A DNA stretch of 25,147 nt from an uncultured Candidatus Saccharibacteria bacterium (GCA_964360665.1 CAYHXS010000002.1:1-25147); one strand, 5' to 3'. Positions 3,542 to 24,846 are shown, numbered from the stretch's first letter. Notes: generated from the letters alone by a model not told the origin. Numbers and translations are program-made.

Positions 3542-5404
3542 TTATTTTGTCAGACGGTTCCAATAATACCAATCCAAAACATCTTTTCCGACCGGCACCG
3601 CGTTCAAACTTCCTTCGCGCGCGTTTTCAATCAAAACTAAAATGGCAATTTGTTTATCTAACGGCGCGCCCACCTCCACTAAAGCTTCGGCGGGTAAATA
3701 AGCCACGAAAAAAGCATTGGTCCGGGTATTATTGGCAACCTGCGAACTGCCTGTTTTTCCGGCAACCTGTATTGGCAGATCCGCCAACGCGTAAGCTGTT
3801 CCGTAATATTTCCGCACGGTATCTTTCATGCCCTCCTGGACTTCTTTTATTTCTCCGGATAAATCGGAAAAATCCCTGATAACTTCCGGCTCTTTTTTAA
3901 TAATATGAGGCCGATAAAATTTTCCGCCATTCGCAATAGATGCGATTTGGCTAATCAACTGGATCGGCGTAACCAAAAGGTCACCCTGGCCGATAGTAAC
4001 ATTATAAGTGTCTCCAAAGCGCCAAATGTCATTTTTCCGCGCCTCTTTTTCTTCCGGGTCAGGCAAAAAACCGGAGTTTTCCCCATCCAAATCAATTCCG
4101 GTTTTTTCTCCAAAACCGAAAAGTTTCCAGTATTCTTTCAGTTTCTCTATGCCTAATCCTTTCCGGACATCGCCGATATCACCGACGCTTGGCGGCAATC
4201 CGCCGCCCACCGCGTAAAAGAAAATATTGCTGGAACGCGCCAAAGCCGCTCGCACGTCCACCCAGCCATGCGCTTTCCAATCCAAAAACCGGCTTGGCTG
4301 GTCAGGATTATACGGATTAGGAATTTCCAAAACTCCGGAAGAAAAAACTCTGCTCTGGGGAGTAATCACGCCCTCCTTAAGTCCGGCAATCGCCACCAGC
4401 GGCTTTACGGTTGAGCCGGGCGTGTACATTCCGGAAATCGCCCGGTTAAAAAGCGGGCGGAAAAAAGCAGTTAATAAACTGATCCGTTCTTTTTTTGCCG
4501 AAGGAACCGTAAAAACATTGCTGTCATAACTGGGTATATTCACCAAAGACAAAACCTCGCCATTTTGCGGATTAACCGCTATTCCCACTCCGACATTCCT
4601 GCCCAAAGATATTAAAGCCTGCTGAAGCCGGTTGTAAAAATATTCCTGCAAATCCGCGTCAATCGTAGTATAAATATTCTGTCCATGCCGCGGCGCGTCC
4701 AATAATTTCTCGTCAAGAATTTCCCCTTTGGCGTTTTTATACATTAAACGCAAACCGTCTTCGCCGCCCAAAATACCGTCATAATATTTTTCCAAACCGG
4801 CTTTTCCGCGAAGATCACCAAGCTGGATCTGGCCGGTATAACCAACAACGGGTGCAAATGCCGGACCACCGATGTAATCCCGGCGGTAATCATCCTGAAT
4901 TTCCAAAGCCGGAATGTCCAATTTTTGTATTTCCGAAACCTGCGCCGAAGAAATATCTCGCCCCAAAGTAATCAAAGCGGTTTTCTCTAGGTCGGTTTTA
5001 TCGATGATTGACATTAAACTCTCTTTATCAGTTTCCAAAATTCCGCTTAAAGAATCCGCCATGACGTTCAAATTAATTTTTTGGCGTTTCGCCAAACCGG
5101 CATTCAACACCAAACGGAAAGCCGACTCGTTGCGCGCCATTACTTTTCCAAAACGGTCGTAAATCAACCCCCGCACCGCCGGCAAAGTAAGCGGCTGAGT
5201 GACGTTCATTGCTGAACGCCTCTTATAAAAATCACCTTTTACAACGGAAAGATAAAAAATACGGCTAAAAAAAATTCCGGCAAACAAAAACGCCACGCCT
5301 CCCATCAGTAAAAATACCCGCCGGGAAAGCGGCAATTCCAAAATATCCAAATGCCTTGCCTGGGTTTCAATAATGGCATGCTCCAGATCAAACTCCAGCT
5401 TCAT
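3542..5404 (-). CDS. mrdA: Penicillin-binding protein 2 (class B transpeptidase)
   Basis: N-terminal TM helix, PAVRGLIYDR dimerisation domain, catalytic SxxK (GSTVK), SxN (SSN) and KTG (GKTGS). Confidence 0.93.
   Translation of the reverse strand: MKLEFDLEHAIIETQARHLDILELPLSRRVFLLMGGVAFLFAGIFFSRIFYLSVVKGDFYKRRSAMNVTQPLTLPAVRGLIYDRFGKVMARNESAFRLVLNAGLAKRQKINLNVMADSLSGILETDKESLMSIIDKTDLEKTALITLGRDISSAQVSEIQKLDIPALEIQDDYRRDYIGGPAFAPVVGYTGQIQLGDLRGKAGLEKYYDGILGGEDGLRLMYKNAKGEILDEKLLDAPRHGQNIYTTIDADLQEYFYNRLQQALISLGRNVGVGIAVNPQNGEVLSLVNIPSYDSNVFTVPSAKKERISLLTAFFRPLFNRAISGMYTPGSTVKPLVAIAGLKEGVITPQSRVFSSGVLEIPNPYNPDQPSRFLDWKAHGWVDVRAALARSSNIFFYAVGGGLPPSVGDIGDVRKGLGIEKLKEYWKLFGFGEKTGIDLDGENSGFLPDPEEKEARKNDIWRFGDTYNVTIGQGDLLVTPIQLISQIASIANGGKFYRPHIIKKEPEVIRDFSDLSGEIKEVQEGMKDTVRKYYGTAYALADLPIQVAGKTGSSQVANNTRTNAFFVAYLPAEALVEVGAPLDKQIAILVLIENAREGSLNAVPVGKDVLDWYYWNRLTK
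3669..3694. repeat. In-frame palindromic element in mrdA (encodes PAEALVEVG)
   Basis: Minus strand cccgcc-gaagctttagtgga-ggtggg hairpin (one G-U) interrupting the usual FVAxAP...IA segment. Confidence 0.6.
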
Positions 5405-5410
5405 ACAAAG

Positions 5411-6457
5411 TTAAATGTTAATCTCTCTCGGCCGAAGCGGATTATTCACAATGTTGTAATATTTATCAAACTGTTCAACGGCAATACCGGCGCCGCGGGC
5501 AACCGCCGTCATCGGGTCATCAATTATTTTTACCGGCACCAGCAATTCTTTTTCCATCAGTTTATCCAAATTTTTCAACAAGCTCCCGCCGCCGCACATG
5601 TACAGACCGTTTTTAAGCATATCGCCGACTAATTCCGGCGGAGCGGTTTCAATCACCTCGCGTACGGATTCCAGTATCATTTTCAATGACCTGCTGATAG
5701 CCAGACGAATATGGCTGTCTTTCAGCAATACTTCCTTAGGCAAACCAGTCGCCATATCCCTTCCCCGGATGGCAAGTTCCATTTTCTGCTCAGGCAGAGC
5801 GGAACCGATAACCATTTTTAACTCTTCGGCAGTCGGTTCTCCGATTGCCAGTTTAAATTCCTCCCTGACAAATTTAATAATATCGTCATTCAATCTGTCG
5901 CCGGCAATTTTCAAACTTTTCGCCGTAACAATCCCGCCCATGGAAATCACCGCGATTTCCGTAGTTCCGCCGCCGATATCCACGATAAGATTCGCAGTTG
6001 GCTGGTCAATGGGCAAACGCGCCCCAAGCGCGGCCGCCAGCGGTTCTTCCAAAACATAAGCTTTTCTCGCTCCGGCGCCGATAACCGCGTCTTCCACGGA
6101 CTTTCTTTCCACCTCGGTCAAATTAGTTGGCACGCCGACTACCGCGCGGTGATAATGCAAAAAATTACCTTCCGCGCCTATTTTTTTGAAAAAATATTTC
6201 AACATCTCCTGCGTCATTTCAAAATCGGAAATAACGCCGTTAACCAGCGGCCTGATAACGGTAATATGCGCCGGCGTACGGCCAATCATTTTTTTTGCTT
6301 CCTCGCCGATTGCCAGCACCTGGCCGGTCTTATTGTTAACCGCGGCAACAGACGGCTCATTAATCACAATTCCCCTCCCGCCGACATAAATCAAAGAATT
6401 GGCCGTTCCCAGATCTACGCCGATGCTTTTTGAAAAATAATCAAAAATGTTTTTCAT
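5411..6457 (-). CDS. mreB: Rod shape-determining actin-like protein MreB (copy 1)
   Basis: GVDLGTAN, EPLAAALGA, VDIGGGTTE, GGGSLL; directly upstream of mrdA. Confidence 0.96.
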   Translation of the reverse strand: MKNIFDYFSKSIGVDLGTANSLIYVGGRGIVINEPSVAAVNNKTGQVLAIGEEAKKMIGRTPAHITVIRPLVNGVISDFEMTQEMLKYFFKKIGAEGNFLHYHRAVVGVPTNLTEVERKSVEDAVIGAGARKAYVLEEPLAAALGARLPIDQPTANLIVDIGGGTTEIAVISMGGIVTAKSLKIAGDRLNDDIIKFVREEFKLAIGEPTAEELKMVIGSALPEQKMELAIRGRDMATGLPKEVLLKDSHIRLAISRSLKMILESVREVIETAPPELVGDMLKNGLYMCGGGSLLKNLDKLMEKELLVPVKIIDDPMTAVARGAGIAVEQFDKYYNIVNNPLRPREINI

Positions 6458-6460
6458 TTT

Positions 6461-7738
6461 TTATTTCAATAATTTTCCCAATTGCGTAATGGAAATTAAT
6501 TTTGCTGATTTTTCCGAACGCTTTTTCACTTCAATCTTTTTTTCTTTTATTGTTTTTTCACTGACTATCAGCCGTAGCGGCGCCCCGATTAAATCCGCGT
6601 CATTCAGTTTTTCTCCGGGAGATGCCGTTCTTTCGTCATATAATACCTCTGATTCGCCAACGAGTCCAGCAGCGATTTTATAAACTTTTTCCGCTTCTTT
6701 TCTGACTTTTTCCGAATCTCCCAAGACAACTAAATGAACCCGAAATGGAGCAATAATTTCCGGCCACAAAATGCCTTTTTCGTCATTATATTCTTCAACT
6801 AAAGTTCCCAAAACCCGGGTTGGGCCGATTCCATAAGAACCCATAATCACAATCTGCCGGTCGCCTTTTTTATCCAAATAGAACAGGTTAAAAGCATCGG
6901 AAAATTTAGTGCCGAGCTTGAAAACATTGCCGATTTCAATGCCATGATCCATTTTAATGTTTCCCTGCCTGCCGGCAGGCAGGGCTTTTTTGCAGTTCGG
7001 GCATTTACCGCCGTGGCCGTCCTGAAAAATTTCCTTATTCTGCGCCCAATCACAGGAATCGCAATAATAAACCGTATCTTCCCCGGCCGGATTCAGAACC
7101 TGAAATTCATGCGTATATTCTTTGGTAAAAGCGCCGCCGCTCGCTTCCACGACTTTTGCCTTCAGGCAAAGCCGGCTAAAGATTTTTTTATAAGCGCCGA
7201 TTACTTTTTCATAATAAGCGTCCAAATCTTTTTTATCGGCGTGAAAACTGTATAAATCCTTCATTAAAAATTCCCGTCCGCGCAAAATTCCAGCCTGCGC
7301 CCGCGGCTCGGCGCGGAATTTCATTTGAATCTGGTAAACGGCTTTCGGCAAATCCTTATAAGAACTGATAAAGTGTTTGGCGATTGAAGAAATGACTTCC
7401 TCGTGCGTCCAACCGAGGCCGTACTGCAAATCGCGCAAATCTTTCAGATTTTCCCCTGTTTTATAAATAATATCCACATCCCAGCGTTTTGATTGCTCCC
7501 AGTATTTCTTATGCACCAAAGCCGGCATTAAAAGCTCTTCCCCGCCAACGGCGTTCATTTCCTCCCTGATTACCTGATTGATTTTATTTAAAACCCTAAA
7601 ACCAAGCGGGAGCATGGAATAAACTCCTGCCGAAGATTTGCTGATAAACCCGCCCTTAATTAAAAATTTGGCGTTTTTTGATTCTTCGCCTTCGGGCAGG
7701 TTTTTAATTGTTTTTGAAAATAATCGCGACTGCCGCAT
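6461..7738 (-). CDS. proS: Proline--tRNA ligase, short bacterial form without INS editing domain
   Basis: LGWTHEE, FRAEPRAQAGILRGREFLMKDLYSF, IEIGNVFKLG, MGSYGIG, anticodon domain DADLIG. Start moved to MRQSRLF (7738). Confidence 0.96.
   Translation of the reverse strand: MRQSRLFSKTIKNLPEGEESKNAKFLIKGGFISKSSAGVYSMLPLGFRVLNKINQVIREEMNAVGGEELLMPALVHKKYWEQSKRWDVDIIYKTGENLKDLRDLQYGLGWTHEEVISSIAKHFISSYKDLPKAVYQIQMKFRAEPRAQAGILRGREFLMKDLYSFHADKKDLDAYYEKVIGAYKKIFSRLCLKAKVVEASGGAFTKEYTHEFQVLNPAGEDTVYYCDSCDWAQNKEIFQDGHGGKCPNCKKALPAGRQGNIKMDHGIEIGNVFKLGTKFSDAFNLFYLDKKGDRQIVIMGSYGIGPTRVLGTLVEEYNDEKGILWPEIIAPFRVHLVVLGDSEKVRKEAEKVYKIAAGLVGESEVLYDERTASPGEKLNDADLIGAPLRLIVSEKTIKEKKIEVKKRSEKSAKLISITQLGKLLK
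6963..6984. repeat. Perfect 22-bp palindrome inside proS (LPAGRQG)
   Basis: ccctgcctgcc|ggcaggcaggg; reads LPAGRQG on both strands. Confidence 0.85.
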
Positions 7739-7768
7739 AAAGTAATATCTAACTAATTTTATCAATCC

Positions 7769-8803
7769 CTACCACAAAGTCAAAATGTCTTTCAGGGTAA
7801 CCAACAGAATCAAAGCCAACAAAAACATAAAGCTGGCGCCGGTAACGACAAACTCCGTTTTTACACTGACAGCGCGGCCGCGAATTTTTTCAATCGCCAA
7901 GAAAAGCAATTTTCCGCCGTCCAGCGCCGGAATCGGAATAACGTTAAAAACCGCCAAATTCAAAGAAATCAAAGCCAAAAGCTGGACAAAATATATCAGG
8001 CCGTCTTTGCTCGCCTGAATTGCCATTCCGACAATGCCAACCGGTCCGACGAATTTATCAATTACGCCTTTTTCCGTGAAAATACCCGCCAACAAACCGA
8101 ATACTCCCTTAATAATTTCCCCTACGGCCTTTAAAGACAAAACTAATCCTTCATACAAACTCCGGAAAAATCCGGTTTTCGGAATACCGGTTTCCGCCAG
8201 ATAAATCCCTAAATTACCCTCCCCTTCCGGCACTTTTACGCGCGGCGTCACCTTTATTTCCAAATCTTTGCTGTCCCGCTTAACACGCAAAACAACTTCT
8301 CTTCCTTTGTTTTCGTCTAAAAATTTCACCAATTCCGCAACAACCGTAAAATCGGAAATCCGGTCGTTTTTCATAATGCCGGCTTTTTCCGCCAAACCGC
8401 CCCCCTTAACCTCGGTTATCATCAGCGATTGCGGCACGCCAACCATGAAAACCGCCGAAGTCAGAAACCATCCCAAAATAAAATTCATCAAAACTCCGGA
8501 AACAACAATAGCCGTCCGCTTCCAAATTTTTTGGTGGCTGAAGCTCCTTTTTTCGTCTACAACGGTTTTTTCTTCAAAATGTCTTTCGCCGTAAATTTTC
8601 ACGAATCCGCCGAACGGCAGCCAGTTGAAACTGTATAAAGTCTCGCCGATTTTCCTGCTCCATAACCGCGGCGGCAGTCCGAAACCGAATTCTTCCACCA
8701 AAAGCCCGAAAAATTTAGCGGCAAAAAAATGGCCGGCTTCGTGAATAAATACCAACAAGGACAAACCTAAAATAACGATAACAATTGGCAATAATTCAAA
8801 CAT
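7769..8803 (-). CDS. rseP: RseP-like site-2 intramembrane Zn metalloprotease (M50), copy 1
   Basis: HEAGH, FGFG, PFGGFV, short PDZ-like region, NVIPIPALDGG. Start at MFELLP (8803); the ORF-track extension runs into a terminator hairpin. Confidence 0.92.
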   Translation of the reverse strand: MFELLPIVIVILGLSLLVFIHEAGHFFAAKFFGLLVEEFGFGLPPRLWSRKIGETLYSFNWLPFGGFVKIYGERHFEEKTVVDEKRSFSHQKIWKRTAIVVSGVLMNFILGWFLTSAVFMVGVPQSLMITEVKGGGLAEKAGIMKNDRISDFTVVAELVKFLDENKGREVVLRVKRDSKDLEIKVTPRVKVPEGEGNLGIYLAETGIPKTGFFRSLYEGLVLSLKAVGEIIKGVFGLLAGIFTEKGVIDKFVGPVGIVGMAIQASKDGLIYFVQLLALISLNLAVFNVIPIPALDGGKLLFLAIEKIRGRAVSVKTEFVVTGASFMFLLALILLVTLKDILTLW

Positions 8804-8809
8804 ATTAAA

Positions 8810-8818
8810 ATAATAACA
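8810..8818 (-). promoter_or_regulatory. Extended -10 (TGnTATTAT) 6 nt upstream of the rseP copy 1 ATG
   Basis: Minus strand tg-t-tattat-tttaat-ATG. Confidence 0.5.
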
Positions 8819-8820
8819 TA

Positions 8821-8846
8821 AAAAATCACCCTCCAAAGGAGGGTGA
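8821..8846 (-). terminator. Intrinsic terminator between the two rseP genes
   Basis: tcaccctcc-(3 nt)-ggagggtga 9-bp perfect stem followed by TTTTT on the minus strand. Confidence 0.8.
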
Positions 8847-8854
8847 AATATAAT

Positions 8855-9910
8855 TCATTTAACAGACATGCGCCTGATGTCGTTAAAAGTAGTAAACGCC
8901 AACAGCAATAAAACTAATCCAATACCGACCATCTGCCAAATCCGCATAAACTTCTTGCTCGGTTTAATGCCGGTCAGCATTTCAAAAATAACCGGGTAAA
9001 TCTGCCCGCCGTCAAAAACCGGAATCGGCAATAAATTAAACAAAAACAGCGAGAGGTTAATTTGAATAATCAGAAAAATCAGTACTTCAAAGCCCTGCCG
9101 CGCCGCTTCACTGGAAATCTGATAAATCATAATCGGTCCGCCGACGGAATCCGCCGACGCCTTTCCTTGAATTGCCTTGCGGATGAAACCGAATAATTGT
9201 TTCAAATCTTCCGATAATCTCCTATAACCTAAATTAGCAGCGGAACGGATACCCTTACGGACAAAATTAAATTTCGGAGAAACACCGATTACGCACTTAC
9301 CCTCTCCGCTCTCATTATCTAATTTCGGAACAACAATAACAGAAATTATTTTTTTATTTCTTTCCAGCAAAAAACGCAGGGGCTTACCATTGCTTTCTTT
9401 TATTTTTAAAACCACTTCTTCCCAAGCATTGATTTCTTGCTCATTAACGTTAATTATTTTATCGCCAATCAATATTTCCGATTGACTTGCCGGCGAATCC
9501 GGAAAAATATACTGCAATTCCGTAGTAGGAACAGCTAATCCTTTTATCCAAAATAATCCGATATACAAAACCAAAGCAAGAAAAAGGTTGGAAAACGGCC
9601 CGGCAAGAAATGTCAGGAGCCTTTTCCATGGCGCTATTGCTTCCATATACCGTTCCGGATAATAGGGTTCATGGAATCGCTTAAATTCCTCCGGCAAATC
9701 TTTCTGTAAGGGCATTACATAACCGCCGAGCGGAAACAGAGAAACGCGGTATTCCGTCTCGCCAAGTTGCGCTGAAAAAATCCTGGGTCCAAATCCGAAA
9801 CAAAACCGGATTACTTTTACGCCAAACAATTTCATTGTCAAAAAATGCCCAAACTCATGGAATCCAACAACTACACCCAAAACAAACAGAAAGGCCAGCG
9901 CGCTGGTCAT
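8855..9910 (-). CDS. rseP: Second RseP-like M50 metalloprotease with a canonical PDZ domain
   Basis: HEFGH, FGFGPR, TEYRVSLFPLGGYV, PDZ DSPASQSEILIGDKI, GGPIMI, NLLPIPVFDGG. Start at MTSALA (9910) with AGAGGT 4 nt upstream. Confidence 0.9.
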   Translation of the reverse strand: MTSALAFLFVLGVVVGFHEFGHFLTMKLFGVKVIRFCFGFGPRIFSAQLGETEYRVSLFPLGGYVMPLQKDLPEEFKRFHEPYYPERYMEAIAPWKRLLTFLAGPFSNLFLALVLYIGLFWIKGLAVPTTELQYIFPDSPASQSEILIGDKIINVNEQEINAWEEVVLKIKESNGKPLRFLLERNKKIISVIVVPKLDNESGEGKCVIGVSPKFNFVRKGIRSAANLGYRRLSEDLKQLFGFIRKAIQGKASADSVGGPIMIYQISSEAARQGFEVLIFLIIQINLSLFLFNLLPIPVFDGGQIYPVIFEMLTGIKPSKKFMRIWQMVGIGLVLLLLAFTTFNDIRRMSVK

Positions 9911-9953
9911 TTCAACCTCTATTAAATTTTCAAGGTTATTCTTATAGTAACAC

Positions 9954-10114
9954 CAAACTCGCCCCGCCTGCATCTCTGACGGCACCAGAGTCCGCTTGCT
10001 CCTGCGGCAAGCGGCTCCTATATCTCGGCGCCAAAAACCTATAAGCTTACGCCACGGTACCCAGCTTTTGGCGCCTCCGAAATTGCCGCGCGAGAAGCAA
10101 GCAGGGCTCGTTTG
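9954..10114. other. Highly structured intergenic element (candidate ncRNA, 5' leader or MITE-like repeat)
   Basis: Closing pair caaac 9954/gtttg 10114; hairpins 9974-9990, 9992-10014 (8 bp) and 10027-10075 (10-bp ggcgccaaaa/ttttggcgcc). No known RNA motif recognised. Confidence 0.55.
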
Positions 10115-10140: not shown

Positions 10141-10178
10141 ATTAACGCTCAACATTGTTCACGGAAAAAGGAGGAAGC

Positions 10179-11104: not shown

Positions 11105-11105
11105 T

Positions 11106-11202: not shown

Positions 11203-11994
11203 TTAATTAATTGCTTCCAATTGTATCCTCTTATTCACATTATAACTTTTTATCAGAAAAAATCTATTTAAAACCGATTTCAGCGTTTTCCAGTTTTTCA
11301 ATTTATCTTTTTGCAGATTCAATATCAATGATTCAAAAAATAAATCCAATAATATCGGGACTTCTTTCTGCTCTTCAACCAATTCTTTAATTAATTTTGA
11401 CTTCGCGGAACCGCTCAAATGCAGGAATTCCCGCGCTTTTTTCTCCGCTTCCCGGGTCAAATTATCATTCAGCAAACGGAAAGCGCGCCCGGGCCGGCCA
11501 AAAGCCGAATCAATGATTTTTTTGTCTTTTGTCACGCTCAACATTTCACTATCCGATAATCTGCCGAAATAAATTTTCTGCAAACGGGATAACAGCGGTG
11601 GAAACAAATTTTCCGGCTGGCTGGCAATTAATATTAAAACCGAATGCTCCGGCGGTTCTTCGGTAATTTTCAAAATCGCGTTTTGCGCCTGCGGCGTTAA
11701 ATTTTCGGCATTATTTATTACAACAACCCTTTTTGGGGAAACAGCCGGCTTTTGCCATAAAAAATGTTTTATTTCCCGCATCGCGTCAATGCCGGATGCG
11801 TCTTTCAAAATCAAAGAATCCTGAAGCGGGCGGGAAGCTGGTTCAAATTCTCCACTTTCCAAAAGATTCGCCAGATGCCCCGCGAAATAAAATTTCCCGA
11901 CTTCCGGCTCGCCGAAAAAAATATAGCCGTGAGCCAGCCGGTTGTTTTTAACCAGATTCTTAAAATCCCTCACCAAATCCTGATGGCCGATCAT
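11203..11994 (-). CDS. holB: DNA polymerase III delta' subunit
   Basis: MIGHQ start, HGYIFFGEPEVGK, IDAMREI, KRVVVINNAENLTPQAQNAILKITEEPP; C4 zinc motif absent. Confidence 0.9.
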   Translation of the reverse strand: MIGHQDLVRDFKNLVKNNRLAHGYIFFGEPEVGKFYFAGHLANLLESGEFEPASRPLQDSLILKDASGIDAMREIKHFLWQKPAVSPKRVVVINNAENLTPQAQNAILKITEEPPEHSVLILIASQPENLFPPLLSRLQKIYFGRLSDSEMLSVTKDKKIIDSAFGRPGRAFRLLNDNLTREAEKKAREFLHLSGSAKSKLIKELVEEQKEVPILLDLFFESLILNLQKDKLKNWKTLKSVLNRFFLIKSYNVNKRIQLEAIN

Positions 11995-14395: not shown

Positions 14396-15757
14396 ATGAC
14401 AATAAAAATCAGAAGGGTCCTATTTTACGGTCTTACTCTCACTTTCTTTGTCGTTGGCGCGGCAACAGTTTTTTATTCCAATGGCTGGCGGTTTGACTGG
14501 GAAACTTTTGCCATCAGCAAGCTAGGTGCCATTTATTTTAAAAACCTGCCTCCGGATTCCAGCGTGACAATAGAAAAAACCAATATCAAATTTGAACCGG
14601 GCATACTAAAATCCGGGCTTTATGTGGCGAACCTTTTTCCAAAAAATTATCCGGCCAAAGTCGTTAAAAACGGCTATCAGGTCTGGTTCAAAGAAATCTC
14701 CGTCAAACCGTCTTTGGTAACTGAAATTCCCCAAATTGTTTTGGTGCCGGAAAAATTAATCTTTGAAAAACCAATAGCCGAAAAAATCGCGGATTTCTGG
14801 CTAGGGCCGGAACATTTTGTTTTGCTTAATCAGGACGGCAACCTTTTGTTTAATGGCAAAAAAATCGCCGGCCAAGAAATTTTATCCTGGTCTGCTGATG
14901 GAAAATCCGCTCTCACCAAAGGCGGTAATAATTATTTTGCCGTTGACCTGAATAATCTTTCCAAAAGCGCCCTGGCCGGGCAGGCCGTCAATCTGAGCCT
15001 GACGTTCAATAATCTCAGAAAAAATCTGGGCAAAAAAGATTCCTCCGCTATCCAGACAATCCATTTTTACCCGGAAAATAACAACAAATTCCTGGTAAAA
15101 ACCGCCAATGACATTTATTCATTAGACCACAAAAAAATGAGTCTGACGCCTCTTCACCTGGATGAAATCGGATATTTCACTGAAAGAGACGGGGAAATGA
15201 TTTTCTCGCGCGGAATTAAAGCTTACGTTTACAATCTTAATTCCGGCTCGCCTGAACCGCTGGCGCTGGCAAAAGAAAACAATTCCAAAATAATAAACAT
15301 CGGGGTTTCACCCTCCGACAGATACCTGTCTTTTTTGAGCGAAGACGGGACGCTGCAGATTTTTGATGAAGACGCGCAAAGCGCGAAAATCATTGCCAGA
15401 AACGCAAAATCATCCGCCTTTTCCCCCGACTCCAAAAAAATAGCTTTTCTCAGCGGCAACAAGGAAATAGTGATTTACAATTTGACAGCCGATGAACAAG
15501 AACTGAAAAACAAACGCCAAAAACAAACCATCATACTCAATATCGGCGCTACTGAAAATACCTTGTTCAACTGGCATAAAGACTCCCATTACCTGTTTGT
15601 AAAATATCCGGATGCGCTTTATCTCCTGGAAGGAGACGCTTTTCCTCCTATCAATTTCCAGCTTATTGATTCTTCAAATCAAAAATACGCCTATCATCCG
15701 GAAACAGAAGTTTTATATCTGCTTAAAAACAACTCTCTCTACTCAATTATTTTTTAA
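14396..15757 (+). CDS. Membrane-anchored protein with PEGA-like domain and TolB/WD40-like beta-propeller
   Basis: N-terminal TM helix; YPAKVVKNGYQVWFKEISV (PEGA-like); repeated blade motifs WSADGK, VSPSDRYLSF, FSPDSKKIAF, WHKDSHYL. Confidence 0.7.
   Translation: MTIKIRRVLFYGLTLTFFVVGAATVFYSNGWRFDWETFAISKLGAIYFKNLPPDSSVTIEKTNIKFEPGILKSGLYVANLFPKNYPAKVVKNGYQVWFKEISVKPSLVTEIPQIVLVPEKLIFEKPIAEKIADFWLGPEHFVLLNQDGNLLFNGKKIAGQEILSWSADGKSALTKGGNNYFAVDLNNLSKSALAGQAVNLSLTFNNLRKNLGKKDSSAIQTIHFYPENNNKFLVKTANDIYSLDHKKMSLTPLHLDEIGYFTERDGEMIFSRGIKAYVYNLNSGSPEPLALAKENNSKIINIGVSPSDRYLSFLSEDGTLQIFDEDAQSAKIIARNAKSSAFSPDSKKIAFLSGNKEIVIYNLTADEQELKNKRQKQTIILNIGATENTLFNWHKDSHYLFVKYPDALYLLEGDAFPPINFQLIDSSNQKYAYHPETEVLYLLKNNSLYSIIF
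14969..14987. repeat. gccctggccgggcaggccg, identical to the alaS insert unit; in frame (ALAGQA)
   Basis: 19/19 identity with 24544-24562. Confidence 0.85.
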
Positions 15758-16187
15758 CGGACCTCAGCCAAATAATTCCGGCAACCAATCCGCCAAACAA
15801 ATCAAAAAATAGGTCTGATAAAGTATCGTCTAATGTCAAACTAAAAATCGGAAATCCGGACAATCGGAAAAAATAATATACCGTCAAATATTCATAAAAC
15901 TCCCAGAATAACCCTATTAAACCCGCGAAAGACACGATAAACAACAAAAAGACCGGTCCTTCGGGAATACTCAGGACCTTCGGCTTATTTTCTTTCCAGG
16001 ACGGCAATTCTAATTTTCTCTGAAAAAAAATAAGGAAGATTGACGCCACCAATACTCCTCCGAGGAAATGCATTAACATATCAGACCAGAACAATCCCTG
16101 AAACCAGGCAAATCGGCTGTATAAAATCTGGCCCAATAACAAAATAACGGCGACAACAAAAATAAATTTTCTGTCGGATATAAACAT
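15747..16187 (-). CDS. Small integral membrane protein (DUF2238/VanZ-like, tentative)
   Basis: Four hydrophobic segments; DMLMHFLGG, FWEFYEY and DTLSDL motifs. Confidence 0.7.
   Translation of the reverse strand: MFISDRKFIFVVAVILLLGQILYSRFAWFQGLFWSDMLMHFLGGVLVASIFLIFFQRKLELPSWKENKPKVLSIPEGPVFLLFIVSFAGLIGLFWEFYEYLTVYYFFRLSGFPIFSLTLDDTLSDLFFDLFGGLVAGIIWLRSVKK
15955..15978. repeat. In-frame palindromic element (VLSIPEG) in the membrane-protein gene
   Basis: Minus strand ggtcct-gagtattcccga-aggacc, preceded by a second ccgaagg. Confidence 0.55.
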
Positions 16188-18166: not shown

Positions 18167-18781
18167 TTATTTTGAATAATAATCAACGACCATATTGACG
18201 TCAAAAGGCACTTCTATATCTTTTGGCAAAGCCACCATTTCCCCTTCCAATTTATCCGCATCAATCCGCAGCCAAGCCGGCGCTTCGTATTTTTTTAATA
18301 ATTCACCGATACCTTTCAAGACCGGATGGTCCTTTGATTGCGGCCGAATGGAAATCCTATCTTTGATTTTCACCAAATAAGACGGGGCAGAAACTCTTTT
18401 TCCGTTAACTAAAATATGCCCATGGCCGACCAGCTGCCTTGCCACGGAACGTGATGCCGTTAAACCAAGGCGGAAAACCACATTATCCAATCTCCGTTCC
18501 AGCATCTGAATAATCAGGTTACCGGTTAAACCGGGATTTTTCATAGCAGCGGAAAAAATGTTTTTCATCTGAGTTTCCCGTATTCCATAACTGGCTTTGA
18601 TTTTCTGCTTCTCCGCCAATTGCTGGCCAAATTCGGAAAGCGCGCGACGGCGCGCCTGACCGTGAAGGCCCGGGCGGTACGGCCTTTTCACCAAAACGCA
18701 TTTTGGAGAATTACAACGATGGGCTTTCAAGAAAAGCCTGGTTCCCAACGCGCGTTCTTTTTTTTCTTTGGTATTAAACAT
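18167..18781 (-). CDS. rpsD: 30S ribosomal protein S4
   Basis: SEFGQQLAEKQK, LERRLDNVVFRLG, ARQLVGHGH, VVDYYSK. Confidence 0.98.
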   Translation of the reverse strand: MFNTKEKKERALGTRLFLKAHRCNSPKCVLVKRPYRPGLHGQARRRALSEFGQQLAEKQKIKASYGIRETQMKNIFSAAMKNPGLTGNLIIQMLERRLDNVVFRLGLTASRSVARQLVGHGHILVNGKRVSAPSYLVKIKDRISIRPQSKDHPVLKGIGELLKKYEAPAWLRIDADKLEGEMVALPKDIEVPFDVNMVVDYYSK

Positions 18782-18788
18782 AAAAATT

Positions 18789-19244
18789 TTATACTCTCCT
18801 TACCTTCTTCGGCCTCGGGCCGTTATGCGCAATCGGCGTAATATCCCTAATGGATAAAATATTAAAACCCTGATTAGCCAAAGAACGGATAGCCGAGTCC
18901 CGTCCGCTGCCTACTCCGGTAACAAAAATTTCAATGCTGGTAAGGCCGGTTTTTTTCAATTTTTCCGCCAGAGCGGCAATAATCTTTGAAGCGGCGAACG
19001 GCGTGGCTTTTTTCGGACCGGAAAATCCCAGAGATCCGGCGGACGCCCAGGATAAAACATTGCCCGCCTCGTCGGTCACCGTGATAATCGTATTATTATA
19101 GGAAGCTTTAATATAAACATTTCCCTTCTGGATATTTTTGCTTGAAGAAGATTTATTGGAAGCCTTAGAAATTTTTTCTTCCAATTTATCCTTTTCCTTC
19201 AACGCTTCTTCCTGTGTTTGTTTTATGACTTTTTTCTTTCCCAT
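18789..19244 (-). CDS. rpsK: 30S ribosomal protein S11
   Basis: ASYNNTIIT, GPKKATPFAA, GSGRDSAIR, DITPIAHNGPRP. Confidence 0.98.
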   Translation of the reverse strand: MGKKKVIKQTQEEALKEKDKLEEKISKASNKSSSSKNIQKGNVYIKASYNNTIITVTDEAGNVLSWASAGSLGFSGPKKATPFAASKIIAALAEKLKKTGLTSIEIFVTGVGSGRDSAIRSLANQGFNILSIRDITPIAHNGPRPKKVRRV

Positions 19245-19257
19245 AAATAAATATAGT

Positions 19258-19641
19258 TTACTTCAATTCGCTCTTACGTTTGCCGCTTCCGGCGGTTTTA
19301 CGGACATTGCCGCGGACAGTGCGGGAATTTGTCTTGGTCCGCTGGCCGCGCACCGGCAAATGCCTTAAATGCCTGATGCCGCGGTACGCCTGCAATTCTT
19401 TCAACATATTGATGTTTTGTTTTATCACCTGCCTAAGTTCGCCTTCAATTTTAAAATTCTTTTCTATGAATTCTTTAATCTTGCTTACCTCGTCCTGTGT
19501 CAGATCTTTCGCCCGCTTGTTTTCATTGATATGCGTGGCGGCTAAAATTTTCTTAGCCAAAGAACGGCCGATGCCGTAAAGATACATCAATGAAATTTCA
19601 ATTTTTTTATTATCAGGAATATTTACGCCGATTATACGCAT
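19258..19641 (-). CDS. rpsM: 30S ribosomal protein S13
   Basis: RIIGVNIP, YGIG, EGELR, RGIRH, PVRGQRTKTNSRT. Confidence 0.98.
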   Translation of the reverse strand: MRIIGVNIPDNKKIEISLMYLYGIGRSLAKKILAATHINENKRAKDLTQDEVSKIKEFIEKNFKIEGELRQVIKQNINMLKELQAYRGIRHLRHLPVRGQRTKTNSRTVRGNVRKTAGSGKRKSELK

Positions 19642-19657
19642 ATATATATTTAAAATT

Positions 19658-19771
19658 CTAACCTTGCCTTTGCTTATGTTTTTTAATTTTACATACGATA
19701 AACACGCGGTTCTTTCTCCGCACCGCTTTACAATCCTTGCAAACTGTTTTTACCGATGATCGTACTTTCAT
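19658..19771 (-). CDS. rpmJ: 50S ribosomal protein L36 (Zn-binding form), absent from the ORF track
   Basis: Hand translation [37 protein letters not shown]; canonical position between infA and rpsM. Confidence 0.96.
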
Positions 19772-19776
19772 GTTTA

Positions 19777-19995
19777 TTAAAGCCTCCTGACAATTCTTCC
19801 CCGGCGGTCATCATAAGGAGTCAGTTCCACAAGCACCCGGTCACCCGGAAGAATTTTTATGTAATTCATCCGCATTTTTCCCGAGAGATGGCCAAGAATT
19901 TCTTTACCTTCGCGCGTCTTAAGACGAAACGAAGCTCCGGGAAGGGCTTCTTCAACAACCGCCTCTGCTTTAATGGTGTCTTTAGGGGAATTCAC
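19777..19995 (-). CDS. infA: Translation initiation factor IF-1
   Basis: [32 protein letters not shown]. Confidence 0.97.
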
Positions 19996-20024
19996 TTAGT
20001 TTATCTTACGCAATAATAGAAAAA

Positions 20025-20054
20025 AGTATAGCATCAAATAGCCTCATAAGTCAA
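20025..20054 (-). promoter_or_regulatory. Strong sigma70 promoter for the infA-rpsI operon
   Basis: Minus strand TTGACT-N18-TATACT with an extended -10 TG. Confidence 0.7.
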
Positions 20055-20074
20055 CTATCCGGATAGCCGCCGTT

Positions 20075-21700
20075 CTATTCCACCACGATTTTAATTTTAT
20101 CCGGAGAAACCGGGACCCGTTTAACCCAGATCGGCCAAAGCGAAACGGTTACGCTTTCAATTCCCGGCAAACCCGAAAGTGAGAACTGGAGCTCATTTTT
20201 AGACTTTCCGGCAAGCCTTGAACGCAATCCGCCAATATCAACTTTTTCCGCCAGAACCGCGTTAAAATTAACAGGAAAAGTCAGTTTGCCTTTTTCAAAA
20301 TCAATGCGCGCCAGTCCGAATTCCAAAGTATAATTCTTCACCTCAAAATTATCTCCAGCGTCGTAAATAACACGCTTAACCAACAAATCCTTGACATCGC
20401 TTTCCTTGAACGCGATTGCCGACATTTGCGCTTCGCTGAAAACTCCGAATTGGCTGTCTTCGCCGGCATCAGTATCAACTTTCTGGCTGATAACGCTGTA
20501 AGAAGTCGCTCCGTCAACGATTTTAAATTCCTTGGGAATCTGGGTGATTAGTAAAACTTTTAAGCTGTCTCTCAAAGACGTTCCGGCGTTTTCTTTCGCT
20601 TTTTTAATGTCGCTGTCAGTCGGGTAAGCCATTTCACCGACAAAACCACCGCTCATATTGCCGGTTGATTCGCCGTAAAACGCCTGATACTTCGGCGTTC
20701 CCTTAACAAAACCAGGAATGGTAAAAAGTTTAACTGGTCCGATGTTGTAATCAGGACCAGGCTTATCTGCCACCACCTCCGCTTCAATGCTGGAAGAAAT
20801 AATTTTCCCATCCGTAATTTTCGCGCCCGGGACGGTAATGCCTTTGGTCAAAAGAAAAATCTTGCCGTCCGGCGTCATAAAACGGGTTTTCACAAGCAAG
20901 GGCTGGGGATCGGAGCTATAACTATTGTAAACATTGATTTTTCCAGTCGCTTTTTTCTCCACTTGCCGTTTCCCGGTAGCCGGAAATTTCAATTGGACAT
21001 TTTTTTTCTGGAAAAAAACCTGCGCCGGAACACTCATCTTCTGGATATCAATCACCGCGGTTTTATCGGCTAAAATAGAATTGTTATACGCTCCATCCTG
21101 CTTTTTGGCGGTAATTTTCACGTCTGCTTCCGGCAACACCCTGACAGCGACAAAAACAATCGCCACTGCCACTGCCAGCGCGGCAATTCCGATAAAAACT
21201 TTCTTAACGGAACTTCCCGACGGCATTAACAGCCCAAAATTTATTTTAGGAAATCTTATTTTCGGCAAAGAAAATCTCCTGGCAGGCTTTTTAATTTCCA
21301 TAGGCCTGTTTAGCCGCGCTTCCAAAGCGGCAAATTTATCTTCTACTGCCATTTCCGCTGGTTCTTTTTTATTCAATTTTCCAATAGGTTGCCTTCTTAT
21401 TTTAATTTGCTGGGGAGCGACAATGTCAGAAAACTGCCGCTTGTTTTTAGCAAAAAACGGATTGACAGACGCCAGGCCGCTCATTTCCGAAAGTTCGGTA
21501 ATATGGTCGTCAACCGACTCCACGGAAACTCTTTTCCCGATCGCATCCGCCTCCCGTTTCAATAAATAAAAATTACTCAAAGATTCACCGATATGCGCGA
21601 AACGCGGAACAACTAAAGTTATGTCGTTGTCGTCCGCCTCAATTATTTTTTCAACGATTACCGCTATTTCGTCACTTTTATTTACAACAATTTTCTTCAT
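20075..21700 (-). CDS. Bitopic membrane protein with C-terminal baseplate J/gp47-like domain (tentative)
   Basis: ~90-aa N-terminal globular domain, charged linker, TM helix VFIGIAALAVAVAIVFVAV, beta-rich C-terminal part with EVVADKPGPDYNI resembling baseplate-J-type repeats (recalled, not computed). Confidence 0.6.
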   Translation of the reverse strand: MKKIVVNKSDEIAVIVEKIIEADDNDITLVVPRFAHIGESLSNFYLLKREADAIGKRVSVESVDDHITELSEMSGLASVNPFFAKNKRQFSDIVAPQQIKIRRQPIGKLNKKEPAEMAVEDKFAALEARLNRPMEIKKPARRFSLPKIRFPKINFGLLMPSGSSVKKVFIGIAALAVAVAIVFVAVRVLPEADVKITAKKQDGAYNNSILADKTAVIDIQKMSVPAQVFFQKKNVQLKFPATGKRQVEKKATGKINVYNSYSSDPQPLLVKTRFMTPDGKIFLLTKGITVPGAKITDGKIISSSIEAEVVADKPGPDYNIGPVKLFTIPGFVKGTPKYQAFYGESTGNMSGGFVGEMAYPTDSDIKKAKENAGTSLRDSLKVLLITQIPKEFKIVDGATSYSVISQKVDTDAGEDSQFGVFSEAQMSAIAFKESDVKDLLVKRVIYDAGDNFEVKNYTLEFGLARIDFEKGKLTFPVNFNAVLAEKVDIGGLRSRLAGKSKNELQFSLSGLPGIESVTVSLWPIWVKRVPVSPDKIKIVVE

Positions 21701-21721
21701 TATTATTTAAAAAATACTTGA

Positions 21722-22927
21722 TTAATTTACCAGCCACCTCATTCTCCGATTTGCTAAACGGCTTAAAATATCGTTTTTCGGCAAAAAATCCATTTCCAAA
21801 ACCGCCCCCAAAAGAGAAACAGGATTTTTCACCGGAGTCGCTGACTTAAATTGTACCTTATAGCCAAGTTTTTCGGTAATCATCGATGTGGATAACGACA
21901 ACAGTTTTACGGATTTTTGAAATCGCGACTGAAAACGGCTGGAATAAACTATCTGCGGAAAGTTTAAAAAGGCATTCAAATAGATGGACGCGCCGGCATC
22001 GCCCAGCAAAGATTCTATCCCGTTGGCAAAAACATAAAGTTCTTTTAATAAAAGGGTTTCAAATTTCCTTAAAAAATTCTGAGAAACGCTGCTGGAAACA
22101 TAGGTGTTAATCATCGCAACCGCGGTCTCCTGGTCAACCTTCAGATAGCGACACAAGAGATTATTCAAAGCATTCCCTCCCCAATCAAAACTGTCATGAT
22201 GGGATAAGCGGTCTCCCGCCGACACGAACATGGATGTTTGATTGGGAAAAAGGTTAATCGCGTAAAAATTATTACTGCCAACGATTTTGGAAAGCACGTG
22301 GCAAAGCGCGGTGCCAGCTTCAGTTATAAAAACCACATTCAGATTCTGGTCTAATTCCCGGATTCCCCTCAGTAATTCTTTGCCGACTAAGGTCTGGCTA
22401 AAAAATATTTCCACGGCCCTTGCCTTAAAACCGATGGGGTTTACAACCCGGTGACCATCCAAACGGATGTCACGGATGCGGACATCGCTTAAAATAACAT
22501 CAACATCGTCAATGCCCATTTTTTGGGCGACACGCCAGCGGTTCTTGTCAAAAAATCTCCAGATGGACTGTGAAATAAGGTTATCCAAATCCGCTTCATC
22601 AATAATTTCCCGGGAGTTCTGGCGAACCAGAGAAACCGAGGAGTGCGTCGTGGTCGCCAAAGTTGAGTCCAGACTTAAAATAACTTTATACTTCTCCAGC
22701 TTTCTGATTTTCTTCAAAAGCATCCGCGTGCCATGCAAAACATTCGCCGCGGTAAACTCCGGAACCTGGCGGATAAAGTTCTTCAATACCAAAATTTCCC
22801 TTTTTTCAGGATTTAATTTCAGAAGCGAAACTTGGACGTAATGATTAAGGATTTCTAAAACAAGGTAGTCCTCCCCTTTAACAAAGAGATTGGAAAAAGC
22901 CTCTTTTATGTGATTAAATCCCAACAC
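21722..22927 (-). CDS. FtsA-like actin-fold protein with degenerate nucleotide-binding motifs
   Basis: RLDGHRVVNPIGFKA (FtsA 1C-like), ITEAGTAL, FDWGGNALNNLL..YLKVD; phosphate motifs appear as VLEILNH and INLFPNQT. Start at GTG 22927 preferred (TGnTATACT-N5); the ORF track gives 22942. Confidence 0.6.
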   Translation of the reverse strand: MLGFNHIKEAFSNLFVKGEDYLVLEILNHYVQVSLLKLNPEKREILVLKNFIRQVPEFTAANVLHGTRMLLKKIRKLEKYKVILSLDSTLATTTHSSVSLVRQNSREIIDEADLDNLISQSIWRFFDKNRWRVAQKMGIDDVDVILSDVRIRDIRLDGHRVVNPIGFKARAVEIFFSQTLVGKELLRGIRELDQNLNVVFITEAGTALCHVLSKIVGSNNFYAINLFPNQTSMFVSAGDRLSHHDSFDWGGNALNNLLCRYLKVDQETAVAMINTYVSSSVSQNFLRKFETLLLKELYVFANGIESLLGDAGASIYLNAFLNFPQIVYSSRFQSRFQKSVKLLSLSTSMITEKLGYKVQFKSATPVKNPVSLLGAVLEMDFLPKNDILSRLANRRMRWLVN

Positions 22928-22980
22928 ATTTAAGTATAGCACACCATTCGGCGCCTTAACTATTTGCCTACCAACACCGA

Positions 22981-24846
22981 CTATTCAACCGCCGCTCTTA
23001 TTCTCCGCACTCCGGCGCCAACAGCTTCTTGTTTAATGATACGAAATCTGCCGATTTTAAAAGTATTGGTAACATGTGGTCCGCCGCAGAATTCCTTGCT
23101 AAAAGGTTGCTCCTCTTTGCCAACTGGCGAATCAGAGCCAATCGTGTAAACTTTTACACGATTGGGATATTTTTCCTTGAAAAAATAAAGTGCGTTGGTT
23201 TTTTTCGCTTCTTCAATCGGCAATTCCTGATAAGTAACCGGCAGATCTTTTTCCACTGTTTCATTAACTAACGCTTCTGTTTTTTTTAACTCTTCATCGG
23301 TCAATTTGCGCGGAAAAGAAAAATCAAAGCGCGTCCGTTCGGCCGTAATGTCCGAACCCATTTGTTTTACTTCCGAGCCAAGCACTTTGCGAAGCGCCGC
23401 CTGCAAAAGATGCGTTGCCGTGTGCAAACGGACTACTTTTTCCATCTCTTCTTCGCTGGACGCTTTCAATTCTCCGGTATTCAAAACCAATCCATGCCCG
23501 CCGAATTTCTTTTCCATTCCCGCCCGGGAAATTTCCTGGTGTTTTTTAAACTCCACCTCCAAATCTTCTTTTTGCAAATCTTTCACTTTTTCCGGCACCA
23601 ATTCCTGTAAAAGCTCAAAAGGCAACCCAAAAGTTTCATAGATATAAAAAGCGTCTTTCGCGAAAATCACTTCATATCTTTCAATTTCTTTCACGCCAAG
23701 AGCCAATGCTTTTTCAAACTTAGTTTTTTCGTCCATCAACACCGCCAAAATTTCTTCGGTATTTTTTACTTCCGGATAAGCGGCGCCGAAAATGTCTTTT
23801 ACTATGCCGACTGAAAGCGTAAAAAGTTCCGCGTGAATGTCATATTTAATCCCGTAAACCAAAATCCGGCGGAGCAATCGCCGCAAAATATAGCCCGCTT
23901 CTTTATTTAACGGCCGGACGCCGTCCGCAACCAGAAAAATTGAAGCGCGCAAATGGTCAGCCAAAACCCGCAAAACCCGGTCTTCTAAACCCGGCTTAGC
24001 TTTTTTAATCATAAAAATCAGCGGCTCAAAAAGGTCTGTTTCAAAAATATTATCCTTGCCCTGCATCACCATAACTAAACGCTCAAAACCCCGGCCGTTA
24101 TCAATAGATTTCTGTTCCAGCGGAACGTATTTACCGTCCGGCAATTTATTATATTGCATGAAAACATCATTGCCGATTTCCATAAAGCGCCCACAATCGC
24201 AATTAGGATGACAAACCGGCCCGAATTTTAAATCATGGGGTTTTCCGAAACAATAAAACATTTCCGAATCCGGACCCGCGGGGCCGGGACCGCCGGTTTC
24301 CCACCAATTTTTTTCACGGCCGTAAAGAAAAATTCTTTCCCCGACTTTCGCTTCAATTCCCGCTTTCTTAAACTGCTCCTGCCAAATGCGGATTGCCTCC
24401 TTGTCCTGCGGCACTTCGTCGTCGCCCTTAAAGGCAGTCACATAAAGAAGCTCTGGATCAAGCCCAAGCCCTTCTTCCGAAGTAATAAATTCAAAAGATA
24501 AAGGAATGGCTTTTTCCTTAAAATATCCCCCCTGGCCGGGCAGGCCCTGGCCGGGCAGGCCGAAAGAAAAATTGCCGAGCATTTCAAAAAAAGTAAGGTG
24601 GGTTTTATCTCCCACTTCTTCAATATCCGAAGTCCGAAAACACTTCTGCGCCGATGCCGTATTTTTACTGCCAAAATCACGCATCGGATCCGCCTTGCCG
24701 ACATAATACGGCTTAAACTGCTGCATGCCGGCAGTGGTCAAAAGCACCGAAGGGTCGTCCGGAATAAGCGAAGCTGAAGGAACAACCGCGTGTCCGCGAT
24801 CTTTAAAAAATTTCAGGAATTTTTTACGGATTTCCTGCGAATTCAT
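22981..24846 (-). CDS. alaS: Alanine--tRNA ligase (catalytic plus editing domains, no C-Ala)
   Basis: LLTTAGMQQFK, QKCFR, HLTFFEMLGNFSFG, GPAGPDSE, IDNGRGFERL, editing motifs HTATH and CGGPH; ends at GVRRIRAAVE. Confidence 0.97.
   Translation of the reverse strand: MNSQEIRKKFLKFFKDRGHAVVPSASLIPDDPSVLLTTAGMQQFKPYYVGKADPMRDFGSKNTASAQKCFRTSDIEEVGDKTHLTFFEMLGNFSFGLPGQGLPGQGGYFKEKAIPLSFEFITSEEGLGLDPELLYVTAFKGDDEVPQDKEAIRIWQEQFKKAGIEAKVGERIFLYGREKNWWETGGPGPAGPDSEMFYCFGKPHDLKFGPVCHPNCDCGRFMEIGNDVFMQYNKLPDGKYVPLEQKSIDNGRGFERLVMVMQGKDNIFETDLFEPLIFMIKKAKPGLEDRVLRVLADHLRASIFLVADGVRPLNKEAGYILRRLLRRILVYGIKYDIHAELFTLSVGIVKDIFGAAYPEVKNTEEILAVLMDEKTKFEKALALGVKEIERYEVIFAKDAFYIYETFGLPFELLQELVPEKVKDLQKEDLEVEFKKHQEISRAGMEKKFGGHGLVLNTGELKASSEEEMEKVVRLHTATHLLQAALRKVLGSEVKQMGSDITAERTRFDFSFPRKLTDEELKKTEALVNETVEKDLPVTYQELPIEEAKKTNALYFFKEKYPNRVKVYTIGSDSPVGKEEQPFSKEFCGGPHVTNTFKIGRFRIIKQEAVGAGVRRIRAAVE
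24531..24560. repeat. Tandem 2x15-bp near-palindromic insert in alaS (LPGQGLPGQG)
   Basis: cctggccgggcaggc x2; splits the conserved GNFSFG|xYFK segment. Confidence 0.9.

Follow-up and report, generated by a model that had tools for sequence, protein, structure and literature searches.

How do short GC-rich segments come to lie in frame inside conserved genes of a bacterium whose genome is otherwise AT-leaning and largely coding? The question is raised by a stretch of 25,147 nucleotides (nt) from an uncultured Candidatus Saccharibacteria bacterium (GCA_964360665.1 CAYHXS010000002.1:1-25147), an ultra-small groundwater member of the Patescibacteria, in which alaS, proS, mrdA, a beta-propeller gene and a membrane-protein gene each contain such a segment. 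The whole stretch is called the window here, and positions are counted from its first letter. It represents contig C2 of the draft genome G000, which comprises 566 kb in 80 contigs with a GC content of 42.7% and a completeness of 94.6%. Comparison with orthologues, with the rest of the genome and with closely related strains shows that units of this kind are copied at the DNA level, in whole units, to new sites, and that their insertion is recent and recurrent. The units are best explained as selfish interspersed micro-repeats that spread as DNA, existing copies being copied into new places with one unit per event; the probability of this reading is put at roughly three in four.

In-frame insertions at five sites

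An earlier note, based on the DNA of the window alone, had described GC-rich in-frame units in alaS (two units), the beta-propeller gene, proS, mrdA and the membrane-protein gene. Gene-by-gene alignments of the syntenic region from up to seven relatives confirmed that all five sites are in-frame insertions relative to the orthologues. The alanyl-tRNA synthetase gene alaS (22981-24846, minus strand, 621 amino acids (aa); Pfam tRNA-synt_2c and tRNA_SAD) contains two head-to-tail units of 15 nt at 24531-24560 on the plus strand (CCTGGCCGGGCAGGC, twice), assigned to family A, which read GLPGQGLPGQ on the minus strand. The resulting 10 aa lie exactly between the conserved motifs GNFSF and GGYFK and are present in none of eleven relatives. 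A single 15-nt unit of family A is located at 14969-14983 (plus strand, reading ALAGQ, followed by GCC at 14984-14986) in the gene of a membrane-anchored beta-propeller protein (14396-15757, plus strand), which has weak Pfam beta-propeller matches, is conserved and syntenic in relatives, and has 5-6 extra aa compared to its orthologues. An identical 19-mer is common to alaS and the beta-propeller gene, where it is read in opposite coding senses, and the claim that one unit recurs in two unrelated genes in this manner is thereby borne out. The 14-mer CCTGGCCGGGCAGG is found three times in the window, compared to 0.00 times in 100 shuffles.

The prolyl-tRNA synthetase gene proS (6461-7765, minus strand; Pfam tRNA-synt_2b and HGTP_anticodon) carries an insertion of 21-24 nt. 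Its product has 8 extra aa after the CxxC knuckle, where three orthologues have a gap, and the insertion contains a perfect 22-nt palindrome of family B (6963-6984, no strand assigned, core CCTGCCTGCCGGCAGGCAGG) reading ALPAGRQ. In the gene of a small DUF2238-like membrane protein (15747-16187, minus strand; PF09997 on the orthologous gene of contigs L058 and L025), a single unit of family C (15954-15980, minus strand, consensus GCCGAAGGTCCCGAGTATTCCCGAGGG) reads KVLSIPEGP and accounts for 9 extra aa, which is exactly 27 nt. The fifth insertion, also of 27 nt, is located in mrdA, which encodes the class B penicillin-binding protein PBP2 (3542-5404, minus strand; Pfam Transpeptidase and PBP_dimer). 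It spans approximately 3662-3688 on the minus strand, with a register that is ambiguous by a few nt, and encodes EALVEVGAP, 9 extra aa after FFVAY at a gap in two orthologues. The GC content of the window copies is 0.87 for family A, 0.82 for family B and 0.56 for family C (0.67 for the family C consensus), compared to 0.43 for the genome.

In the AlphaFold model of AlaRS (mean predicted local distance difference test score (pLDDT) of 88), the insert is part of a disordered loop; residues 98-105, between a strand (86-95) and a helix (110-122), have a pLDDT below 50. The units sit in what appear to be tolerant surface loops.

The mrdA insert is a singleton with zero real copies in G000 and is assigned to none of the repeat families. 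The earlier grouping of hairpins containing CGAAG was given up, as these are not one family. One look-alike of the mrdA insert with 21 of 27 matching positions is found inside polX (C1:23486-23512), and CCGAAGCTT is common to the mrdA insert and a 36-nt alaS insert of the relative G010. Both together may be a faint trace of another, older family.

Repeat families across the genome

Four of the five window sites belong to the genome-wide families A, B, and C. These were defined by a whole-genome k-mer census of G000 with clustering on 13-mers, whereas 11-mers were dropped because they were swamped by codon-bias words. Family A (CCTGGCCGGGCAGGC, 15 nt) has 18 exact copies, 30 copies at up to one mismatch and two tandem dimers in the genome, while approximately 0.001 copies would be expected from base composition. 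Its host genes include alaS, pheT, dnaG, gyrA, polX, clpB, a PEP-utilising enzyme gene, a D-Ala-D-Ala carboxypeptidase gene, and others. In pheT and dnaG, the unit corresponds to exactly 5 extra codons compared to five relatives; for the site in PPDK, no orthologues were found in the five relatives. Family A copies use both strands and five of the six frames, giving rise to the peptides GLPGQ, PGRAG, LAGQA, PARPG, and ACPAR. As the same nucleotides encode unrelated peptides in several frames, selection on the peptide is ruled out. Family C (GCCGAAGGTCCCGAGTATTCCCGAGGG, 27 nt) is represented by 18 units in four frames, and all of its seven tandem pairs have a period of exactly 27. Family B, a palindrome of 20-22 nt with the core CCTGCCTGCCGGCAGGCAGG, occurs at five loci. 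A fourth family, CTTCGGCAGGCTCAGG, which reads SAGSGQ, is low in copy number: G000 has three copies, and of 23 genomes in the taxonomic family, 16 (G000 among them) have between 1 and 6. Further copies are therefore present in the genome, and the proposal of a DNA-level micro-repeat system adding loops of 5-10 aa stands: copies are found genome-wide, in several frames and on both strands, and strains differ by whole units.

Open reading frames make up 92.8% of G000, and those of at least 100 aa contain 28 of the 30 family A copies and 16 of the 18 family C copies. The share of family A copies within open reading frames equals this baseline, so that the units neither avoid nor seek genes. All coding units with known boundaries have whole-codon lengths. 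The consensus sequences of families A, B, and C have no stop codon in any of the six frames, which applies to 32%, 20%, and 12%, respectively, of random genomic words of those lengths. The earlier note had asked whether coding copies are multiples of three and intergenic copies are not. The first part holds for the coding copies with known boundaries; for the second there is one non-coding indel, of family B, with a length of 20 nt, compared to 21 nt for the proS indel. One of the longer intergenic repeats of the kind found at the window's ends has two copies, on contigs C19 and C24, in which the family B palindrome forms an additional segment of 20 nt; this segment is missing from the window's copy of the repeat.

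Filled and empty alleles in closely related strains

Filled and empty variants were identified by exact look-up of the window proteins in public assemblies; the sequencing runs that contain window sequence are groundwater metagenomes. Contig L058 (2247 nt), from a separate assembly of sequences from this aquifer, shows 4 substitutions relative to the window over 2182 aligned nt, corresponding to 99.8% identity, and lacks both the 15-nt unit at 14969 and the 27-nt unit at 15954. Contig L059, with 96.4% identity to the window, lacks the 15-nt unit in the beta-propeller gene. At the protein level, P0129 is identical to the membrane protein apart from the lack of exactly 9 residues, and P0126 is the beta-propeller protein without ALAGQ. 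A further membrane protein, encoded on contig C59, has alleles with two, one, and zero PARPG units. The 27-nt unit in the membrane-protein gene is also missing from contigs of run X5, which belongs to a different study, and one contig of run X4 covers the region of the proS palindrome (6884-7372) with 21 gap positions somewhere within. For five other unit-bearing genes, no variation was found among their few cluster members.

Public contigs and runs thus contain both filled and empty alleles, as the earlier note had suggested checking. With near-identical strains that differ by precisely one unit, the process appears to be still going on. A gain in the G000 lineage is the parsimonious reading, since the more distant strain is empty, as are all distant orthologues. 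At position 15742, contig L059 and a contig of run X5 carry 26 extra bases, which alter the last residues of the beta-propeller protein at the overlap with the end of the membrane-protein gene.

Unit boundaries and folding

Family A sites have the structure GCC-CTGGCCGGGCAG-GCC with a unit length of 12 + 3 = 15 nt, while the empty site has a single GCC. This was verified at four of four sites, located in the beta-propeller gene, alaS, pheT, and dnaG, by comparison with an empty allele or an orthologous empty site. The family C site of the window consists of CGG, 24 nt and a second CGG (a 27-nt unit; CCG on the other strand), and its empty allele has one CGG. [quoted passage not shown] As the triplet is found on both sides of the core and once in the empty site, each event adds the core and one copy of a pre-existing triplet. 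Where a family A copy lacks the left GCC, its right triplet is still GC(C/A/T) and shows no co-variation. This lack of co-variation suggests that the triplet acts as microhomology or as a part of the element and not as a free target-site duplication.

The hairpin that had been regarded as the shared trait of the units is statistically supported for a few of them only. The family B palindrome (z -3.0) and the family A dimer in alaS (z -2.2) are the only units that fold better than shuffled sequences, whereas z is 0.10 for the family A monomer, 0.67 for the family C unit and -0.46 for the family C copy of the window, which, like the mrdA insert, are no better than shuffles. Two family C variants keep a 6-bp stem (GGTCCC/GGGGCC and GGTCCT/AGGACC), and this stem-preserving change would represent one covarying pair, a weak indication of a conserved fold. 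Hairpin formation is not required, and palindromy is not the common denominator of the units.

Recurrent insertion in alaS and taxonomic distribution

The junction GNFSF|GG, which is interrupted in the window's alaS, is occupied by some insert in 25 of 120 AlaRS homologues, with at least eight different sequence types. The names attached to these homologues belong to Patescibacteria/Parcubacteria such as Harrisonbacteria and Giovannonibacteria, and AlaRS lengths range from 573 to 662 aa. GLPGQ is present as a single unit at the same site in four other AlaRS proteins from as many lineages. The DNA encoding these GLPGQ inserts is GGCCTGCCCGGCCAG in all carriers, with two synonymous changes in the copy of P0088, which suggests that an inserted unit decays like neutral sequence. 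In an AlaRS tree built without the insert columns, at least 4 changes are needed to explain the distribution of GLPGQ, and every carrier has an insert-free sister. The family A 15-mer was thus inserted at one and the same alaS triplet on at least four independent occasions. In 105 flanking nt, carriers match their own sister at 94 positions and other carriers at 79-84 positions. As the flanks follow the sisters, the inserts were not imported on a recombined tract. The comparison with sister taxa, which the earlier note had called for, therefore gave sisters without the peptides and distant carriers that encode the same peptide with the same nucleotides.

The alaS genes of relatives (L004, L009, L003, L007, L008) contain other GC-rich inserts, among them units of 39 nt and 36 nt at GNFSF|GG, and a PSAGSGQ unit (CCTTCGGCAGGCTCAGG...) is found at two further alaS sites in relatives. 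On contig L025, a reverse-transcriptase gene of the RVT_1 family (7152-8138) is located two genes upstream of the GLPGQ-bearing alaS of another lineage; G000 has none. A family A copy in a distant pheT (L078) is located at a site that differs from that in the G000 pheT.

In a sample of the order, the 14-mer was found in 9 of 201 genomes (G000 included), and multiple copies were restricted to G000 (18), G005 (9), G015 (5), and G176 (4); it was absent from the three genomes of the same genus that were searched (G001, G003, G004). A sample of the phylum contained it in 13 of 401 genomes (G000 included), with 10 copies in G521 and 6 copies in G533. The reversed control pattern had 0 occurrences in the 401 and 201 genomes. 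In the other carrier genomes, host genes are different, and the 14-mer is often part of longer nested palindromic contexts outside long open reading frames.

The 20-nt palindrome of family B is present as an exact match in 35 stretches of viral contigs (L154-L188), with up to six per contig and with very different GC contents and flanks; in L185, it follows a sequence that resembles a tRNA D-arm. Family C had zero matches in the viral contigs, and the family A matches are all in contigs with more than 50% GC and are chance-like.

Mode of spread

For the spread of the micro-repeats, the following sequence of events is proposed. An existing copy would be copied beside a GC-rich triplet that is already present in the target, adding one unit. 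This copy-in would be a replication or repair event primed by the 3-nt homology, without a dedicated transposase, and local slippage would then make or remove tandem units. In a genome that is 93% coding, selection would presumably act as a filter, letting only units persist that have codon length, are free of stop codons and form a loop. The persistence of only such units in a compact genome would explain their location inside essential genes.

The earlier note had stated that no mobiliser is encoded in the window, and in the 94.6% complete draft G000, none of the six families Y1_Tnp, TnpB, RVT_1, rve, DDE_Tnp_1, and IS110 was found. Y1_Tnp (PF01797) was also not found in the carriers G005, G015, G176, G521, and G533, which are 93-98% complete, while the same search was positive in 6 of 14 control genomes.

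These searches bear on the strongest alternative, according to which the units are non-autonomous elements resembling MITEs or repetitive extragenic palindromic (REP) sequences and their REPIN derivatives. Their 12-14-nt core would be read in trans by an enzyme of the HUH/Y1 type or by another nuclease or recombinase, whose gene would belong to a phage, a plasmid, a partner organism, or a repeat missing from the assembly. This is possible but rather unlikely. The sharp conservation of the copies, their constant ends and the constant flanking triplet agree with it, as does the occurrence of the same 14-mer core in different longer contexts in unrelated lineages, which is reminiscent of a recognition site. 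The patchy, burst-like distribution of multiple copies and the exact family B palindromes in viral contigs point in the same direction, and a draft assembly that breaks at repeats could lack the enzyme gene. In contrast, all six transposase and reverse-transcriptase families are absent from G000 and Y1_Tnp from the five further carriers, and the search for a longer parent element bounded by family A half-sites revealed none in G000, with half-sites at background level. The viral matches of family A are chance-like and those of family C non-existent. To our knowledge, a unit of 15 nt without a significant hairpin is below the substrate size of any known transposase, including those of REP and MITE systems. 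Enzyme-free copy-in by replication or repair is judged, with moderate confidence, to be somewhat more likely than an unseen trans-acting enzyme.

The units could alternatively spread mainly with insert-bearing alleles, by natural transformation and homologous recombination and not by insertion at new sites, with a drive similar to that of uptake sequences. Patescibacteria are generally thought to take up DNA. Identical inserts at the same alaS site despite AlaRS identities of only 58-68%, and about 30 nt of highly conserved DNA flanking this site, would fit such a transfer, and recombination at conserved flanks is reported to have carried yeast GC clusters across species (PMC4478555). However, with alaS flanks that resemble those of insert-free sisters more than those of other carriers, no co-converted tract is visible, and allele transfer does not account for the presence of copies in several frames and both orientations of unrelated genes. 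Known uptake sequences occur roughly once per kb, with one motif per species. The units described here reach one copy per approximately 19-31 kb (566 kb with 18-30 copies) and belong to three or more unrelated families in one genome, and all verified copies are insertions and not substitutions. Membership in the DNA uptake sequences was therefore rejected, and allele transfer as the main mode of spread is improbable.

An assembly or sequencing artefact, or a removal of the units at the RNA level like that of tiny introns, has very little probability. De Bruijn contigs do break at the palindrome and at the tandem dimer, but the same filled and empty alleles are found in the NCBI genome, in ENA contigs from Hainich, and in Logan contigs of another study. 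Removal from RNA would not require coding copies to be stop-free and of whole-codon length, as they are, while one non-coding indel has 20 nt. Still less credible is the notion that the peptides are selected protein motifs, i.e., convergent or paralogous Gly/Pro-rich linkers that arose without DNA copying, since these in-frame loop peptides rich in G, P, A, and Q do resemble natural linkers but the same nucleotides yield unrelated peptides in five frames and orientations, which refutes it. In addition, alaS and the beta-propeller gene read their common 19-mer in opposite senses, some copies are located in non-coding DNA, and nucleotide identity is kept across lineages with saturated synonymous sites.

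Several points weigh against selfish micro-repeats that are copied in without an enzyme. The copying step itself has not been observed, and 3 nt of homology is very little for template switching to a distant donor. As the right triplet of family A copies without the left GCC does not co-vary, the flanking triplet is not a free target-site duplication, and it is not strictly required either. The assembly of the draft G000 could lack a repeated transposase gene, or the enzyme could come from a phage, a plasmid, or the host organism. Less than 1 kb separates the two polymorphic units, which is closer than a uniform process would give. If selection strongly favoured the only loop that is tolerated, the number of insertions counted in alaS could be too high. 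Finally, the translation of the units into loops of 5-9 residues rich in Gly, Pro, Ala, Gln, and Arg is inferred from frame and length.

Relation to known systems

The closest functional analogue of the micro-repeats are the palindromic GC clusters of yeast mitochondria, such as GC42, GC18, and the var1/rps3 cluster (PMC4478555). In a compact, AT-leaning genome, they form short dispersed units that are rich in GC, with flanking direct repeats of 2-3 nt that resemble target-site duplications. They vary in presence and copy number between strains, are as short as 18 nt, undergo merger and nesting, are occasionally located inside a protein gene, and have no known mobilising enzyme (PMC4478555). 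The GC-rich short repeats, the AT-leaning genome, the strain polymorphism, and the flanking triplets are all present in G000 as well. In contrast to the organellar and mostly intergenic yeast clusters, the units of G000 belong to a bacterial chromosome, with approximately 93% of the copies in genes, many of which are essential. They differ further in being of whole-codon length and stop-free in six frames, in the lack of a significant hairpin in families A and C, and in that no exchange by flank recombination was detected at alaS.

Rickettsia palindromic elements (RPEs) are similar with respect to in-frame insertion into unrelated housekeeping genes, where they are read through as an extra peptide (PMC10969869). 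RPEs have a length of approximately 150 bp, encode one conserved peptide, are restricted to Rickettsia and have no known transposase (PMC10969869). The units described here differ in being ten times shorter (15-27 nt), in being read in many frames, in being polymorphic between strains of 99.8% identity, and in belonging to Patescibacteria.

With REP and REPIN sequences, the units share that they are short, GC-rich, partly palindromic, present in multiple copies, and unable to move by themselves. REP sequences are extragenic hairpins of 20-40 nt with a GTAG or CGTC tag that are accompanied by a gene for a REP-associated tyrosine transposase (RAYT). They are mobilised by this IS200/IS605-type Y1 transposase (PMC3733652). 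In contrast, the units described here lie within genes, families A and C lack a significant hairpin, and neither GTAG nor CGTC was seen as a tag in the consensus sequences. Membership in the REP/REPIN-RAYT systems was rejected, as three tested features are missing, namely a Y1 gene, a stable hairpin, and an extragenic location. The REP/RAYT analogy of the earlier note is therefore not upheld, with no Y1 transposase in six carrier genomes. A derivation as MITEs from a full-length insertion sequence was also rejected, since no element with matching ends was found and the searches of G000 gave no rve, DDE_Tnp_1, IS110, TnpB, or Y1 protein. Coding micro- and minisatellites show the same in-phase changes from one to two units as the alaS dimer, the series of zero, one, and two units on C59, and the 27-nt pairs. 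Unlike in satellites, identical units have appeared in approximately 25 unrelated genes, on both strands, and at one site across lineages, which slippage cannot seed.

A literature search found no published description of such elements in Patescibacteria or the Candidate Phyla Radiation. The window contributes the filled and empty alleles in strains of 99.8% identity, the anatomy of unit plus triplet, the at least four independent hits in alaS without flank conversion, and the finding that a hairpin is not required. Tentatively, and short of being probable, the units might represent an undescribed class of mobile DNA in Patescibacteria with a unit of down to 12 + 3 bases. Such a unit would be copied beside a GC-rich triplet without a transposase encoded by the element or the genome, e.g., by copy-in during replication or repair or by a host or phage enzyme that reads the 12-14-nt core. 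The class would be active on the time scale of strain divergence and would repeatedly remodel the same surface loops of essential enzymes, e.g., AlaRS, throughout the phylum.

If true, this would be the smallest selfish proliferating DNA unit in a cellular genome, far shorter than any MITE or REP, and such units could live in essential genes of the most compact bacterial genomes as long as they consist of whole codons, are stop-free and land in a loop. One aquifer community harbours both the filled and the empty alleles, which makes the mechanism directly accessible to tests in a natural population and offers a natural system for finding how the units move. The movement of mitochondrial GC clusters would be a parallel question, for which far fewer comparative data are at hand than for these organisms. 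A part of the length variation of core Patescibacteria proteins, such as that of AlaRS, would be explained, and the units could be used as strain markers. For gene callers, profile hidden Markov models and assemblers they call for caution, with contigs breaking at the palindrome and the dimer.

Other repeats in the window and in the genome

A scan of the window against Rfam at the gathering threshold gave zero matches. A repeat of approximately 115 nt at 9975-10089, upstream of the second M50 protease gene, occurs at 8 places in the genome and has no Rfam match. On contig C1 (approximately 11222-11391), a run of N adjoins a family A copy, the left flank of which recurs beyond the gap, and this points to a tandem or repeat that the assembly has not resolved. 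Both ends of the window (16-280 and 24957-25147) lie in intergenic repeats of greater length, which contain motifs such as CAAGGCGCGACGACGAAA and AATCCCATAACGCGATACTAGCC. These repeats recur at many other contig ends of G000, so that these MITE-like elements probably break the assembly.

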